A DNA stretch of 64,000 nt, from positions 1 through 64,000 of the IMG/VR virus record IMGVR_UViG_3300017902_000306. One strand, 5' to 3'. Of this stretch, positions 1,855 through 47,020 are shown one piece after another (position 1 is the stretch's first letter; each line of letters starts with the position of its first letter). The stretch comes from a virus (lineage: Duplodnaviria > Caudoviricetes). The notes beneath the pieces were generated by a model, which saw only the letters and a list, made by a program, of their open reading frames with translations, was not told the DNA's origin and ran no database searches. Both the position numbers and the translations under genes were made by a program.

Positions 1855-3768
1855 ATGGCAGTTAAAAATGTAACAGAATTAGATTTTTCAAACATAAGAC
1901 AGAATCTAAGAACTTTTTTACAGAACCAAGATGAATTTTCAGACTACAACTTTGAAGCATCTGGTATGTCTGTATTGCTTGACTTGCTAGCTTACAACAC
2001 ACACTACAATGCCATTCTTGCACACATGGTTTCTAATGAGGCTTTTCTTGACTCTGCCGTTAGAAGGAACTCAGTAGTATCCATTGCAAAAACTATGGGA
2101 TATACACCCAGATCAGCTAGGTCTGCGAAAGCATCTATTAATCTTACTGTAGTGCCATCATCATCTTATGTAAGCACAAGTCTTACTCTGGCAAAAGATA
2201 AACAGTTTCAAAGTTCTGTCAATGGAGTTGTTAGAAACTTTGTTCCCGACAAAGACTATGTGATCTCAAAAACTATTGAGAATGGTGTAGCAGCTTTTAG
2301 ATTTACTGATGTAAGATTGATTGAAGGGACTAGGACTACTACATCTGAAATCATCACCACGCAGAACAGGTCTGGGCCTATCGTTTTGCAGAATGACAAT
2401 GTTGATACCACTTCAATAACTGTCAAAGTTCAAACATCAACGTCAAACTTTAGTTCAGAAACTTTTACTGTAGCGAATGATACACTAGATGTCACTTCCA
2501 CATCAAAGATTTTTTATCTTGAAGAAAGAACAGATGGATACTATCAAATTGTTTTTGGTGACGGCATTCTCGGTAAACAACTAGATGTAGGCAATGTTGT
2601 CATAGTTGAATATATTGTCTCCAATGCTACTTTAGGAAATGGTGCTAGAAACTTCAAACCACCAGCTAGTCTTACTGGTAGTGGTGAGAACATTTCGGGA
2701 ACAACCGTAACAATCGGAGCGGGTGGATTTGAAAAAGAAACTGCTGATAGTATTCGATTCAATGCGCCACGATTCAATGCCGCCAAAGGTAGAGTTGTTA
2801 CCAAGACGGACTATGAGACAGTAATCAAACAGTCTAATCCAAACATCAAGTCTGTCGCTGCTTGGGGTGGCGAAGATAATCTGCCGCCTATCTATGGAAA
2901 GATATTCTTATCGTTGCAACCAAACTCAGGGTTTACAATCACTGATGCAGACAAGTTAGCAATTACAAATACTGTATTAGAACCTAAGATGCCGGTGGGT
3001 CTTGTTCCAGAGTTTGTTGATCCAGAATTTATTCACATTGGACTTAACATAACGGTCACATATGACACCAAGTTGACTACGTTATCATCTGAGGCAATTC
3101 AGGCTCTTGCAATTACAAAGGTTGAGTCTCACTTTGAAACTAATTTGAATCAACTGAAAAAGAACTTCTTTACTTCTAAACTACAAAACGAAATCAACGG
3201 CGTATCAGATTCGATTGTTGGTGTTGGGTTAGAGATGAGGTTGATTAAAAAGATTGATCCCGTTCTGGGAACTGCTAGTAGGTATGAACCCAAGTTCAAT
3301 AACAAAATCATGCCAAATGCAGTTAGATCAAATTACTTCACAGTAGACTTGAACGGATCAAGGGACGAAGTTTATATCGTTGACAAACCAAACGATGATG
3401 TCGTTGCACCTGTATACAGTGGAACAGGGACACTGCAACTCAAAACAAAGAGTCTTGGTGTGGTCATTGCTAAAGACATAGGAACAATAGATTACGACAC
3501 GGGTGTGTTAGATATTCTTTCTCTGAATATCATATCCATAAGTGGAACAGCGAATACTCAACTGAGAGTTGTTGTTACTCCACACGAGTCTGCACGAAAT
3601 ATATCAACTGATATTTTGGTTAGGGCAACAGAAGAAGCAACTTACGCTGTTTTCGCACAACCTTCCAGAAACATTATCTTAAATTTAGATGATGCCGCTG
3701 AGGATGCGACCAACAATATCCGAAAGGGTCTAAACGTTACAATGGTGCCTAGGGTAACTGATGAATAG
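1855..3768 (+). CDS. gp6: baseplate wedge subunit gp6
   Basis: ELDFSNIRQNL..FLQNQDEFSDYNFEASGMSVLLDLLAYNTHYNA, SIRFNAPR..A.KGRVVTKTDY, SVAAWGGEDN. Confidence 0.95.
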   Translation: MAVKNVTELDFSNIRQNLRTFLQNQDEFSDYNFEASGMSVLLDLLAYNTHYNAILAHMVSNEAFLDSAVRRNSVVSIAKTMGYTPRSARSAKASINLTVVPSSSYVSTSLTLAKDKQFQSSVNGVVRNFVPDKDYVISKTIENGVAAFRFTDVRLIEGTRTTTSEIITTQNRSGPIVLQNDNVDTTSITVKVQTSTSNFSSETFTVANDTLDVTSTSKIFYLEERTDGYYQIVFGDGILGKQLDVGNVVIVEYIVSNATLGNGARNFKPPASLTGSGENISGTTVTIGAGGFEKETADSIRFNAPRFNAAKGRVVTKTDYETVIKQSNPNIKSVAAWGGEDNLPPIYGKIFLSLQPNSGFTITDADKLAITNTVLEPKMPVGLVPEFVDPEFIHIGLNITVTYDTKLTTLSSEAIQALAITKVESHFETNLNQLKKNFFTSKLQNEINGVSDSIVGVGLEMRLIKKIDPVLGTASRYEPKFNNKIMPNAVRSNYFTVDLNGSRDEVYIVDKPNDDVVAPVYSGTGTLQLKTKSLGVVIAKDIGTIDYDTGVLDILSLNIISISGTANTQLRVVVTPHESARNISTDILVRATEEATYAVFAQPSRNIILNLDDAAEDATNNIRKGLNVTMVPRVTDE

Positions 3769-20023: not shown

Positions 20024-20628
20024 GACCCATTTCAATCAACAGTGATTTGACTAGAATGTTGGACGATTACATAAATTGGTTCAACAAAAAAGATTTTGAT
20101 TTGCCGATGGATGAAAAGAGGTTCGGCGACAGGGACATGGAGTATTACTGTTCCAAAGAATATCTTGACCATGTAATGTCTGAATCGAAGAAACACAGAG
20201 GCCCTCCAGAGTATGCGAAGGTATGTGACTTTCATTTGACACACAAGACACCACAACAGGCAAGAGAAAAGTCATTAGAATTTTGTAAGGACTTGGCTGC
20301 ATATCTTGGCGCCAAGTTTACCGCAGTTCACGTTTACTATCCCGAAGGTGGATATATGTCGTGGCATAACAATTGGGACTGTCCAGGCTACAATATACTA
20401 CTATCTCATAGTGATGGTGGTGGATTCTTCAAGTATCTCACTGAAGATGGTTCTATTGAAACAATGAACGATCCTGCCGGATGGAACGCAAAGGTTGGAT
20501 ATTACGGTGGCAAAGATGATCCATACTGGCACTGTGCTGGTTCTACTAGTCCTAGACAGACAATCGGATTTGTTATCCCCGACAAGGACATGTGGGAAAT
20601 GATGATAGAGGATATCAGTTATGCTTAG
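20020..20628 (+). CDS. putative 2OG-Fe(II) oxygenase (DSBH fold)
   Basis: YYPEGGYMSWHNN...GGGFF...YWHCAGS..PRQTIGF (H-x-N...H...R arrangement). Confidence 0.65.
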   Translation: MRPISINSDLTRMLDDYINWFNKKDFDLPMDEKRFGDRDMEYYCSKEYLDHVMSESKKHRGPPEYAKVCDFHLTHKTPQQAREKSLEFCKDLAAYLGAKFTAVHVYYPEGGYMSWHNNWDCPGYNILLSHSDGGGFFKYLTEDGSIETMNDPAGWNAKVGYYGGKDDPYWHCAGSTSPRQTIGFVIPDKDMWEMMIEDISYA

Positions 20629-21202
20629 TGACAAGGTAGCGATGTCTATGACAAAGTTCTTTCGGTTTTTTGCCGATACGTTCTTTGCTAAAAGGTATGG
20701 ACATAGAGCAGTTGTTTTAGAAACCATTGCAGGGGTGCCTGGTATGGTAGCAGGGATGTGGTTACATCTAAAAAGTCTGCGTAAAGCAAAAACTGGATAC
20801 GGGCCTACGATTCGTGAACTACTTGCAGAAGCAGAGAATGAACGTATGCACTTGATGTTCTTTATAGAAATTGCAAAACCAAACTGGTTTGAGAGACTAC
20901 TGATTCTCTTGGCGCAGTTTATATTCTGGCATTTTTATTTCATTATGTATCTCATTTCGCCACGGACTGCACATAGAATGATTGCATACTTTGAAGAAGA
21001 GGCGGTCAGGAGTTATACGGAATATATGACACTGATTCAAGCTGGTGTGATACCAAACGTCAAGGCACCTCAACTAGCAATAGACTACTACGATATGCCA
21101 CAGGATGCAAAGTTATGGGACATGGTTTATAATGTTCGCAATGACGAACTCAACCACTCCAAAGTAAATCATAGGATGGCGGACAACTTATGTTCTCAAT
21201 AA
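20621..21202 (+). CDS. aox: alternative oxidase (ubiquinol oxidase, di-iron), proteobacterial AOX type
   Basis: All four iron-binding segments present: LETIAGVPGMV, EAENERMHL, FEEEAVRSY, RNDELNH. LETxAGVPGM matches AOX rather than PTOX (LETIARVPYF). Confidence 0.92.
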   Translation: MLSDKVAMSMTKFFRFFADTFFAKRYGHRAVVLETIAGVPGMVAGMWLHLKSLRKAKTGYGPTIRELLAEAENERMHLMFFIEIAKPNWFERLLILLAQFIFWHFYFIMYLISPRTAHRMIAYFEEEAVRSYTEYMTLIQAGVIPNVKAPQLAIDYYDMPQDAKLWDMVYNVRNDELNHSKVNHRMADNLCSQ

Positions 21203-41621: not shown

Positions 41622-42887
41622 ATGTATCTTTCTGAAGAAATCCAAAAGAAGTGGAGTCCAGTTCTGGATCATCCCGATTTGCAGGAAATTTCCGACCCGT
41701 ATCGTAAGTCGGTAACTGCTGTAATTCTGGAGAACCAAGAAAAGGCTCTACAAGAAGAAAAGCAAGTCTTTTCTGAAGCAGTGCATGCCAACAACATGTC
41801 AGCTGCGATTGACACTTATGACCCCATCCTCATCAGTTTGGTTCGCCGTGCGTTGCCTAACCTGATGGCGTATGATGTCTGCGGTGTTCAACCGATGACT
41901 GGCCCCACTGGTCTTATCTTTGCGATGAAGTCGCATTATACTTCACAAACCGGCACAGAAGCTCTGTATAACGAAGCAGACACCGACTTTGCTGGTGCTG
42001 GAACCCACGCTGGTTCCAACCCTGTTGATGGAACATACACAACAGGAACAGGTATCACTCGTGACAACGCTGAGTTGTTGGGTGACACCGTTACTCTTAA
42101 CCAGATGGCATTCTCAATTGAGAAGACCACGGTTACTGCTAAGTCTCGTGCGTTGAAGGCAGAATACACTGTCGAACTCGCTCAAGACCTCAAGGCAGTT
42201 CACGGTCTGGATGCTGAGTCAGAGTTGTCAAACATTCTGTCTCAAGAAATCCTCGCTGAGATCAACCGTGAAGTCATCCGAACCATCTACAAAGTTGCTA
42301 AGACGGGTGCTGCTTCAACTGCAACCGCTGGAACTTTTGACCTAGACGTTGATTCAAATGGTCGTTGGTCTGTAGAACGGTTCAAGGGTCTTCTCTTTAA
42401 CATCGAAAGAGATGCTAACGTAATCGCTCAAGATACTCGTAGGGGCAAAGGTAACTTCATCATCTGTTCTTCAGATGTTGCAAGTGCTCTGTCAATGGCT
42501 GGTGTTCTTGACTACGCTCCCGCCCTCAACACTTCTCTGAATGTTGATGACACTGGTAACACTTTTGCAGGTGTTCTCAATGGTCGGTATCGTGTATACG
42601 TTGATCCTTATTCTGCAAACACTGGTGCTGCAAGTCAGTTCTACGTTGCTGGATACAAGGGCACATCACCTTACGATGCTGGTCTGTTCTATTGCCCATA
42701 CGTTCCTCTGCAAATGGTTCGTGCGATTGACCCGTCTACTTTCCAACCTAAGATTGGATTCAAGACTCGTTACGGTATGATCGCTAACCCATATGTAACT
42801 CAGTCAGATGGAACTACTGATGCTGATACGTTCACTGCTGATCGTAACCAGTATTACCGTTCAGTCAAGGTAACAAACTTGATGTAA
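41622..42887 (+). CDS. gp23: major capsid protein
   Basis: LVRRALPNLMAYDVCGVQPMTGPTGLIFAM, KSRALKAEYTVELAQDLKAVHGLDAE, YCPYVPLQMVRA, FQPKIGFKTRYG. Confidence 0.99.
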   Translation: MYLSEEIQKKWSPVLDHPDLQEISDPYRKSVTAVILENQEKALQEEKQVFSEAVHANNMSAAIDTYDPILISLVRRALPNLMAYDVCGVQPMTGPTGLIFAMKSHYTSQTGTEALYNEADTDFAGAGTHAGSNPVDGTYTTGTGITRDNAELLGDTVTLNQMAFSIEKTTVTAKSRALKAEYTVELAQDLKAVHGLDAESELSNILSQEILAEINREVIRTIYKVAKTGAASTATAGTFDLDVDSNGRWSVERFKGLLFNIERDANVIAQDTRRGKGNFIICSSDVASALSMAGVLDYAPALNTSLNVDDTGNTFAGVLNGRYRVYVDPYSANTGAASQFYVAGYKGTSPYDAGLFYCPYVPLQMVRAIDPSTFQPKIGFKTRYGMIANPYVTQSDGTTDADTFTADRNQYYRSVKVTNLM

Positions 42888-42918
42888 TAAAAAGAATCCC
42901 CACAAGGGACATTTTTAA

Positions 42919-42943
42919 GGGACTCTACGGAGTCCCTTTTTTT
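42919..42943 (+). terminator. intrinsic terminator after gp23
   Basis: GGGACTC-TACG-GAGTCCC (cUACGg tetraloop) followed by seven T. Confidence 0.9.
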
Positions 42944-42948
42944 ATGTG

Positions 42949-42956
42949 TATAAATA
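42949..42956 (+). promoter_or_regulatory. T4-type late promoter of the riboswitch unit
   Basis: Exact TATAAATA just after the gp23 terminator. Confidence 0.8.
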
Positions 42957-43003
42957 ATTATTGCCCACTCGGGCTCCATAAGTCATGGGTGAAAAGACTA
43001 CAT

Positions 43004-43063
43004 TCGTTCATCCACCCTAAATGTAGCGGTGGACGGAAGTAGGCAATTCCGCCGAAGGAACGC
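43004..43063 (+). promoter_or_regulatory. glutamine riboswitch, glnA-motif (class I) type
   Basis: P1 CGTTC(43005-09)/GAACG(43058-62); P2 TCCACC(43011-16)/GGTGGA(43028-33); CGGAAGTA; P3 GGC/GCC; GAAGGAACGC. Matches the glnA consensus CGUUCAUC...GACGGAAGUAGG...CCGAAGGAACGC as recalled. Confidence 0.85.
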
Positions 43064-43085
43064 ATCTTCTAAAGGGAGGTGTTAT

Positions 43086-43259
43086 ATGACTACACAACTA
43101 AACTACAGAGGCGTTAAGTATAACGAACTTATAACTCAAAAGGCAGAGATGCCTTTAGAGATGTTATATCGTGGCGCTAAATACGATCCTACTCAGAGAC
43201 AACAGAATGTTCCTGCTAAATCTGGAATATACCGTGGTTCTAAGTGGAGTTTAGTCTAA
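43086..43259 (+). CDS. 57-aa DUF4278-like peptide with three YRG motifs
   Basis: ATG 43086 after AAAGGGAGGT; MTTQLNYRGVKYN...MLYRGAKYD...GIYRGSKW. Confidence 0.8.
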   Translation: MTTQLNYRGVKYNELITQKAEMPLEMLYRGAKYDPTQRQQNVPAKSGIYRGSKWSLV

Positions 43260-43268
43260 GCTAAAAAG

Positions 43269-43295
43269 AAGGGCAACCTTGCGTTGCCCTTTTCT
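43269..43295 (+). terminator. intrinsic terminator after the DUF4278-like gene
   Basis: AAGGGCAAC-CTTGC-GTTGCCCTT followed by TTCT. Confidence 0.75.
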
Positions 43296-43302
43296 CATCT
43301 CT

Positions 43303-43310
43303 TATAAATA
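43303..43310 (+). promoter_or_regulatory. T4-type late promoter
   Basis: Exact TATAAATA immediately upstream of gp3. Confidence 0.8.
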
Positions 43311-43315
43311 GAAGT

Positions 43316-43903
43316 ATGGCATATACACCGACAATCGCAATAAACCAAGGAACCCACACTGCTCAATCAAGTAGTGAGTTGGATTACTTACGGCCTAATG
43401 GTTTTAAGTTCCAAGTGCATAACATACCGCATGTCGCATTTTTCTGTCAGGGTGCAAACATTCCAGATATTAGTATGGGATTTCCTGTTCAGACTACACC
43501 ACTTTCTGACATACCATACCCAGGCGATAAGATTGCTTTCGGTGATCTAAACATTCGATTCCTCATTCAAGAAGACATGACAAACTACAAAGAGTTATAT
43601 GATTGGATGATCGGATTGGGTTCGCCAGAAAAACACTCACAGTATACAGACTACATCAAGACACAAACATGGAGAACTGCGAGTGCAAGAAAAGACAAAC
43701 AGGAAGCTCTCGCACAAGTAAGTGACGCAAGTTTGTTTGTCTTGGATTCAAACGACAATCCAAAGATAGAAATTATTTTCAAAGATTGTTTTCCAGTTGC
43801 TCTTGCCGGACTTGACTTTGATCTTTCTGGTGGAGACCAACCCTATTTTGTAGGAATCGCATCATTTAAATATCGTATATATACTATTAGACCTATGAGT
43901 TAA
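43316..43903 (+). CDS. gp3: tail tube terminator/completion protein
   Basis: YLRPNGFKF, FFCQGANIPDI, IPYPGDKIAFGDLNIRFLIQEDM.NYKELYDWM; position after gp23 as in marine T4-likes. Confidence 0.85.
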   Translation: MAYTPTIAINQGTHTAQSSSELDYLRPNGFKFQVHNIPHVAFFCQGANIPDISMGFPVQTTPLSDIPYPGDKIAFGDLNIRFLIQEDMTNYKELYDWMIGLGSPEKHSQYTDYIKTQTWRTASARKDKQEALAQVSDASLFVLDSNDNPKIEIIFKDCFPVALAGLDFDLSGGDQPYFVGIASFKYRIYTIRPMS

Positions 43904-46423: not shown

Positions 46424-47020
46424 ATGGCAAAGAAGAAAACAGAGAACAGGCATTACGTCAACAACAAAGAATTTCTGGCGGCGATGACTGAGTATCGCAC
46501 TGCTAGGGTTGCTGCTGAGGAAGCAGGAGAAACACCACCCCGTGTATCAAACTACATTGGTGAGTGTTTTGTCAAGATTGCAAACCACCTCGCATACAAA
46601 TCTAACTTTGTAAACTACACCTTCAGAGAAGAAATGATTCTGGATGGTATTGAAAATTGTATCACATACATCAATAACTTTGATCCTGCCAAATCATCCA
46701 ATCCTTTTGCATACTTCACACAGATAACCTACTACGCCTTCTTGCGTAGGATTCAGAAAGAAAAGAAACAACTGGATGCTAAATACAGATACATTCAGAG
46801 TTTAGACTTACAAAACATGATGGATGAACTTGCCGCTGATGGGGGGTCTAACGAGTATCTTGAGTATATGAAGCGACAGATTGAGGAAGCAGACAAACAG
46901 AACGAGAAGTTTGCCAACGAAGGTAAGAACATTCCAAAACGAAGACCTAAATACTTCAATGACAAAGAGGCTCTTGCAGTTGCTAAGGAGAAAATTGACG
47001 CACTCAAAGATGCCCCGTAA
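46424..47020 (+). CDS. gp55: late transcription sigma factor
   Basis: HYVNNKEFL, YIGECFVKIANHLAYKSNFVNYTFREEMILDGIENC, NFDP.KS.NPFAYFTQI.YYAFLRRIQKEK. Confidence 0.98.
   Translation: MAKKKTENRHYVNNKEFLAAMTEYRTARVAAEEAGETPPRVSNYIGECFVKIANHLAYKSNFVNYTFREEMILDGIENCITYINNFDPAKSSNPFAYFTQITYYAFLRRIQKEKKQLDAKYRYIQSLDLQNMMDELAADGGSNEYLEYMKRQIEEADKQNEKFANEGKNIPKRRPKYFNDKEALAVAKEKIDALKDAP

Follow-up and report, generated by a model that had tools for sequence, protein, structure and literature searches.

Between the genes for the major capsid protein gp23 and for a tail-tube-like protein at the gp3 position of an uncultured marine T4-like phage, a glutamine riboswitch and the gene for a 57-amino-acid peptide form, as judged from comparison of related junctions, a mobile promoter-to-terminator cassette that lies between two copies of the T4-type late-promoter box TATAAATA. 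This is the main new result for a 64,000-nucleotide stretch of viral DNA (Duplodnaviria; Caudoviricetes; positions 1 to 64,000 of IMG/VR record IMGVR_UViG_3300017902_000306; hereafter the window), which comes from an uncultured viral contig of 74 kb with an estimated completeness of 45% and no close isolate. A preliminary description made from the sequence alone had proposed for this junction a late promoter box, a glnA-type aptamer, a Shine-Dalgarno (SD) sequence, a 57-amino-acid open reading frame (ORF) with YRG motifs and a hairpin on either side, and all of these elements are found at the positions claimed, flanked by gp23 and the gp3-position gene. The whole is read, with good though not full confidence, as a late, glutamine-gated, mobile and monocistronic moron of about 335 nt.

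The boundaries of the cassette emerge from a survey of the gp23-gp3 interval in relatives, which the preliminary description had itself suggested. The 66 related junctions found in viral contigs span 73 nt to 2.4 kb and hold varied cargo, and only three carry the aptamer, those of the window and of one distant lineage (L007, L008). The unit is also present in L002, a truncated twin of the window. Close relatives have an empty site or other cargo. Two of them with 97% identical gp23 (L140, L198) show the empty arrangement T1-ATGTGT-TATAAATA-GAAGT-ATG, where T1 is the terminator after gp23, the same arrangement is found in L150, and another relative (L138, with 98% identical gp23 and 97% identical gp3) has a different insert of 787 nt. 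At the empty site there is a single box, while in the window exactly one promoter-to-terminator unit lies between the left copy (42949-42956) and the right copy (43303-43310), both on the + strand, and from the right copy onwards the sequence is identical to the empty-site junction. The right copy serves the gp3-position gene as its resident late promoter, and T1, conserved in the empty-site relatives, by the same comparison belongs to the resident junction rather than to the cassette. Marine metagenomes contain the cassette stretch in 14 runs or more, drawn from about eight studies, and an independent 158-kb long-read contig has the identical order of gp23, peptide gene and gp3; the arrangement is therefore no assembly artefact.

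Movement is indicated by two further contigs, G001 and G002 (loci L003 and L004), which have a replication module in common with the window phage at 55-83% amino acid identity, and which carry the cassette at a non-homologous site, in opposite orientation and with both flanks unrelated. Homology starts at the left box and stops just beyond the terminator T2 (43267-43297), and at 85% identity it exceeds the sole other DNA-level match between the window and these contigs, the polymerase region, with approximately 76%. The conservation is uneven, as leader (28/28) and aptamer (64/64) are identical over all 92 positions, and for the ORF the identity is about 80% at the DNA and about 70% at the protein level; against L003 the ORF shows nine codons with synonymous-only differences, 15 amino acid changes and a 3-nt indel. 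A reading of L003 and L004 as unrelated non-T4-like phages, based on the absence of gp23, was abandoned upon whole-contig comparison, which placed them among the relatives, their contigs representing a different portion of the genome, and movement is therefore claimed within a lineage.

Phage morons, and promoter/stem-loop shuffling joints in the hyperplastic regions of T4-type phages, are established phenomena. The cassette resembles a moron in its own promoter and terminator, its position between essential late genes, its presence or absence in near-identical phages, its occupation of non-homologous sites and its boundaries at regulatory motifs. Unlike at T4-type shuffling joints, the cargo is a metabolite-gated micro-gene, and the repeated joint is a late-promoter box instead of an early promoter with a stem-loop. 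The cassette moves between related phages, and recombination at shared terminator/late-promoter joints is the apparent route. The gp23-gp3 junctions of relatives (L138-L206) were moreover seen to be a hotspot for cargo such as IscU-like, 2-oxoglutarate-Fe(II)-oxygenase-like and small membrane protein genes, where each insert closes with its own terminator ahead of the resident TATAAATA.

The presence of a glnA-type aptamer ahead of the YRG peptide gene, as initially proposed, is borne out by the Rfam covariance model. RF01739 matches 43003-43066 on the + strand over model positions 1-53 of 53 with 60.0 bits (gathering score 35, E 1e-10), which is the sole Rfam match in a covariance-model scan of the whole window. 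Stems P1 (43005-43009 with 43058-43062), P2 (43011-43033) and P3 (43042-43053) are formed, the junction cores CGGAAGUA and GAAGGAACGC are intact and every consensus base is matched. Across 173 distinct aptamers, pairs 2-4 of P2 and pairs 1-3 of P3 are canonical in 88-100% with two to four Watson-Crick pair types, compared with 53-61% canonical in a null in which the partner was slid; the 3' strand of P1 and two P3 pairs were preset by the search pattern and are hence uninformative for covariation. By sequence and covariation, this RNA is a genuine type-1 glutamine riboswitch aptamer. A candidate anti-aptamer pairing of CUACAUU (42999-43005) with AAUGUAG (43021-43027) was dropped, as AAUGUAG sits in an extended P2, a form found again in many phage aptamers.

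The unit is also a stand-alone late unit, as the preliminary description had it, with its own T4-type box, flanking terminators and a phage-encoded gp55-type late sigma factor (46424-47020, + strand; phrog_234, 198.7 bits) that would read the TATAAATA boxes. All 14 boxes of the window lie on the + strand; chance predicts 2.3, and none of 100 shuffles reaches 14; an exact box within 160 nt upstream is found at 32 of 103 viral aptamer loci among the matches listed, compared with 1.5% of random windows. To the left, on the same strand, the gp23 gene (41622-42887; Pfam Gp23, 469 bits) is followed by T1 (42917-42945), a 9-bp GC-rich stem at 42917-42938 with seven U behind it (-15.9 kcal/mol). A gp55-type factor would start transcription about 6 nt past the left box, near 42962, so that the transcript would begin with a small protective hairpin, GCCC-ACUC-GGGC (42963-42974, one base past the predicted +1), which forms in every folding model. 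At the same position L003 and L004 carry GUACC-AAUC-GGUAC; the sequence differs and yet pairs, hence the stem has been kept through compensatory changes, and it probably stabilizes the 5' end of the mRNA; its position beside the predicted +1 supports that start indirectly. There follow, all on the + strand, the 28-nt leader (42975-43002), the single type-1 aptamer, the expression platform (43062-43082), the Shine-Dalgarno motif GGGAGG (43074-43079), the peptide gene (43086-43259), whose ATG lies 19 nt past the aptamer, and T2, at which the transcript would end. T2 has a hairpin at approximately 43267-43293 (-15.7 kcal/mol), and its stem shows an A:U to G:C compensatory change in L004. The right neighbour at the gp3 position (43316-43903, + strand) matches the tail tube family phrog_45 with 120 bits. 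As a side observation, the ATG of this gene (window 43303-43318 with its box) and that of ORF 1169 (1156-1171) coincide with the predicted +1 of their TATAAATA boxes, with a box-to-ATG spacing of 5 nt that is kept in the relatives L138, L140 and L150 and with no SD, which suggests that both genes use leaderless late mRNAs.

The expression platform is built around the complementarity of GCAUCUUCU (43062-43070) and GGGAGGUGU (43074-43082), which pair in the unconstrained minimum free energy and centroid folds and leave the SD fully paired; the anti-SD strand takes in the last base of P1 and the linchpin C43063. In isolation the SD hairpin amounts to -8.1 kcal/mol; removal of its first two pairs reduces this to -3.5 kcal/mol and removal of the Rfam-conserved tail GCAUC to 0, and SD and AUG are 25-70% unpaired in the fold model once this tail is withheld. 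The arrangement recurs among the matches listed, where 53 of the 81 distinct platforms from viral contigs are predicted to pair the SD core with the first 14 nt past the aptamer (mean z -2.4), and across peptide families the two strands covary, as in GCACCU/AGGGUG, CACUCUGU/AUGGAGUG and CUUUAC/GUAAAG. For the gifB leader of Synechocystis, pairing of the linchpin C with the ribosome-binding site has been proposed and ON switching has been shown (Klahn et al. 2018, PMC6212724). By analogy, the design of the platform fits this translational ON model: at low glutamine GCAUCUUCU including C43063 would pair with and mask the SD GGGAGGUGU, and upon glutamine binding long-range contacts of the aptamer would capture the 3' tail, expose SD and AUG and allow translation of the peptide. 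A second translation lock could be provided by the leader motif AGUCAU (42981-42986), which is complementary to AUGACU (43086-43091, the start codon and the following codon) and paired with it in all unconstrained folds, maybe explaining the perfect conservation of the leader. Complementarity of this type is present at 9 of the 103 listed loci against 4.4 expected, which, with p ~0.016 and loci that are not independent, is weak support.

Several points weigh against a glutamine-gated late unit of this design. In nearest-neighbour models with the aptamer forced and the linchpin C43063 as the only base withheld, the SD core stays paired, and the SD opens in the model only when the whole conserved CAUC tail is engaged; release in the modelled RNA would depend on tertiary contacts of this tail, which are beyond nearest-neighbour modelling, and the direction of switching is therefore taken from analogy. 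The start near 42962 is predicted from T4 rules. Moreover, the U-run of T2 is interrupted on the + strand (UUUUCUCAU), for which reason a terminator scan called T2 on the minus strand only. Contigs from RNA libraries cover conserved parts of gp23 and gp3, and a single one, of the L003 type, spans the aptamer, none with a usable 5' end; as this contig has L003-type flanks with the promoter box included, it may be DNA carry-over or read-through and is no guide to expression of the cassette.

The peptide belongs to the family PF14105 (DUF4278), with a match of 34.8 bits against a cut-off of 25.3 that places residues 26-55 on profile positions 3-34; the full register of three repeats is seen in sequence alignments, with YRG at residues 7-9, 28-30 and 49-51. 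An AlphaFold model built with 73 sequences shows three beta-hairpins with YRG at each turn (predicted local distance difference test, pLDDT, 77.6; predicted template modelling score, pTM, 0.27), and Foldseek of the model against the PDB gave nothing better than E ~4. A search for peptide homologues recovered four clusters, all of the window or the L003/L004 type. In another viral locus (L116) a YRG motif is fused into an 87-amino-acid ORF, the remainder of which (SGFQIRADLLSQAQGLLE...) is homologous to a separate 71-amino-acid gene that in L006-L008 (approximately 3194-3450) directly follows the gene for the YRG peptide; this fusion may point to a functional link between the two products.

That secondary-structure modelling leaves the SD closed when the aptamer forms is what speaks for an aptamer that switches expression OFF, or one that acts through transcription attenuation instead of access to the SD. 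Such a mode of action is nevertheless very unlikely, as the 19-nt spacer between aptamer and ATG holds the SD hairpin as its only hairpin, with no terminator and no U-run behind it, as both types of glutamine riboswitch tested raise expression under nitrogen excess (PMC6212724), and as the overlap of the anti-SD strand with the linchpin C is precisely that of the published ON model. The perfect conservation of leader and aptamer next to a diverged ORF could also be read to mean that the functional product is the RNA, perhaps a glutamine-binding or regulatory one, and that the short ORF is incidental. This is highly improbable in view of the Pfam match and conserved YRG motifs of the ORF, its synonymous-only differences and in-frame indel against L003, and the SD and short ORF which, among the matches listed, stand about 18-32 nt behind nearly every viral aptamer. 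A translational ON switch for the peptide, as in the gifB leader, is hence the preferred reading of the RNA, and there are two proposals for what the peptide would do.

The preliminary description had assumed a peptide that regulates glutamine synthetase (GS), which corresponds to an inactivating factor of the IF17/IF7 type that would shut off the host enzyme at high glutamine. The same aptamer precedes and switches on gifB, encoding IF17, in cyanobacteria (PMC6212724), the DUF4278 domain matched by the peptide is part of IF17, and a review states that the N-terminal region 'seems to improve GS inactivation' (PMC6316151). On the other hand, DUF4278 spans residues 1-57 of IF17-like proteins according to Pfam, and the window peptide aligns to this YRG module alone, with its end immediately behind the third YRG. 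It lacks the entire IF7-like C-terminal segment ARxLM..NRQQ..R..AEVG with its conserved arginines, a segment that is present in the ORFs of IF17 and IF7 type that follow the same aptamer. In cellular genomes the aptamer core precedes IF17-like ORFs of 110-170 amino acids, triple-YRG ORFs of 56-58 amino acids, IF7-like ORFs and small membrane proteins. The residues of IF17 that interact with GS are in the C-terminal part (PMC6212724), and the N-terminal part is described as dispensable for function, a stabilizer (PMC6316151). Having the YRG module without the IF7-like segment, the peptide therefore does not support a designation as GS inactivator. In addition, GS control of this type is described as unique to cyanobacteria (PMC7760959), psbA and hli were not found in about 147 kb of the phage lineage, and the closest cellular peptide, with 38% identity, is from a Porticoccaceae metagenome-assembled genome (MAG). 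Taken together, an IF-type function is unlikely. DUF4278 at the Pfam cut-off was found in none of 401 sampled Pseudomonadota genomes; as the YRG peptide from Porticoccaceae falls slightly short of this cut-off with 22.8 bits, the Pfam search under-detects this subtype and a restriction to cyanobacteria does not follow.

The YRG motif recalls instead the tip of the T-loop of the signalling protein PII (Y46-R47-G48-x-x-Y51), and the triple-YRG peptide might mimic it as a decoy or plug on PII partners such as AmtB, GlnD or the adenylyltransferase ATase at high glutamine. PII of five marine proteobacterial genomes reads GHTE(L/M)YRGAEYxVD at positions 42-54, most repeats of the family have YRG-x-x-aromatic (Y 122, W 27, F 8), the turns of the modelled beta-hairpins carry the motif, and the second repeat of the Porticoccaceae peptide, LYRGAEYQVDQL, matches the PII T-loop of its own genome with a score of 26, equalled by none of 191 null sites. 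The flanks of the window repeats, however, are like those of random YRG sites, with a best score of -3 that 32 of the 191 null sites match; the family as a whole is within the null, and profile-profile comparison with hhalign covers only nine columns at 6.5% probability. Similarity to the T-loop beyond YRGxxY was thus above chance in the Porticoccaceae homologue and not in the window repeats, and T-loop mimicry by the latter is a doubtful proposition. If true, three T-loop-like hairpins would in nitrogen-replete late infection compete with PII at its partners, such as the ammonium channel, GlnD, adenylyltransferase and others, and rewire host nitrogen signalling, which would at the same time explain the role of DUF4278 peptides in cyanobacteria and marine Gammaproteobacteria. 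The Porticoccaceae locus (MAG PALW01000045.1, L286 7395-7745, + strand) has tandem glutamine aptamers followed by a 60-amino-acid triple-YRG ORF, the middle repeat of which, as noted, nearly copies the PII T-loop of the same genome (TELYRGAEYVVDFL), and at a distance of about 2 kb there is a phage-type integrase gene.

With respect to the host, core-gene affinities, as judged from sequence identity, are split and contradictory between cyanophages and phages of OM43 and SAR11. The gp23 protein is 69% identical to that of OM43 phage Melnitz, 66-67% to those of SAR11 phages HTVC008M and Mosig and no more than 63% to full-length gp23 from cyanophages, whereas the best matches of the portal protein are from cyanophages (53%) and UvsW is tied between cyanophages and Melnitz at approximately 55%. 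The earlier statement that the phage shows no cyanobacterial genes stands as far as psbA and hli are concerned, their absence extending over the source contig and two relatives, with the controls as expected (P-SSM2 positive, Melnitz negative). It does not define the host.

Beyond the window, at least 120 viral contigs match the aptamer core. Nearly all of these aptamers are followed by a short ORF, at least six micro-ORF families are represented behind the same core (L009-L128), and among the matches listed YRG is found in about 47 of 129 and tandem aptamers at 28 of 103 loci. The MTxYxxA..AVKK...NPFYP and WTxYCR families were also observed behind the aptamer core in MAGs of SAR86 and other proteobacteria (L240, L255, L265), which hints that phage cassettes of shared micro-ORF families circulate with marine heterotrophs. 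By blastn and tblastn neither the unit nor the peptide had a match among 50,697 phage records, although such searches are insensitive to short motifs and no proof of absence. In three isolated cyanophages, P-SSM2 (245155-245206), P-RSM1 (74072-74117) and S-SKS1 (197434-197481), weak RF01739 matches of 25-35 bits with a CGCAAGUA variant (L342-L344) lie behind sigma70-like boxes with the start codon 9 nt past the aptamer, and the ORFs are non-YRG, of about 50 amino acids and end in C(P/Y/L)WDAxD.

Glutamine riboswitches have been published for cyanophages, for Melnitz (OM43) and Mosig (SAR11) and for metagenome-assembled SAR11-phage genomes (PMC9004378, PMC9964418), as has the association of aptamer and DUF4278 in cyanobacteria (PMC6212724). 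The basic phenomenon, the switch and the peptide family are already known, and what had been put forward as a phage-adapted nutrient-sensing circuit is a real unit whose novelty was overstated. New are the exact boundaries and the mobility of the cassette, its rewiring to a late promoter and the evidence that speaks against an IF17-like label. Melnitz and Mosig share with the window phage the aptamer family and the marine T4-like background and, as checked here, have an SD and a micro-ORF right behind the aptamer, but the peptides are of other families (a 32-amino-acid WxxYC type and a 51-amino-acid type) and the loci are different. The Melnitz aptamer was assigned to the control of ssrA in a study that described no DUF4278 ORF, cassette structure or mobility (Buchholz et al. 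2022, PMC9004378). The annotation treats this aptamer (L136 approximately 999-1175, + strand, corresponding to MZ577097.1 46398-46575) as the 3' end of ssrA. Behind it lie an SD (GGGGAGAG) and a 32-amino-acid ORF missing from the annotation (MTLYQQWCYLKAQKEY...), a member of the WxxYC family, which is common behind viral aptamers and also found in the proteobacterial MAG locus L265. Control of this micro-ORF is more likely than control of the transfer-messenger RNA.

The gifB leader of Synechocystis sp. PCC 6803 (PMC6212724) is similar in its Rfam family, its position in the 5' untranslated region ahead of a DUF4278 ORF and the pairing of the linchpin C and following bases with the ribosome-binding site. 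It differs in having an NtcA-repressed host promoter where the window unit has a T4-type late box, and in an ORF with the IF7-like GS-binding part that the phage-borne, mobile YRG module lacks. Of like architecture are the stand-alone cyanobacterial DUF4278 peptides, such as Prochlorococcus PMM1846/yfr6 and those of L225, L254, L272 and L313 (the latter four 56-58-amino-acid triple-YRG ORFs), which have about 57 amino acids, three YRG and no IF7-like tail with a glutamine aptamer ahead, but which are chromosomal, NtcA-controlled and only 28-38% identical to the window peptide. Picocyanobacterial peptides use the type-2 (Downstream-peptide) aptamer, unlike the window (PMC6212724).

With regard to significance, a metabolite sensor and a micro-gene travel together as a plug-in unit across sites in related ocean phages, and in this cassette the nitrogen-regulated promoter of the host has been exchanged for a phage late promoter. 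The natural alleles (empty, cassette, other cargo) in otherwise near-identical genomes can be compared against ocean nitrogen regimes. The role of DUF4278/YRG peptides is an old question which is sharpened here, as the usual label of an IF17-like GS inhibitor does not fit the window peptide. At some distance from the cassette, the window (20621-21202) also encodes an alternative oxidase (Pfam AOX, 244 bits) amid oxygenase-like genes.

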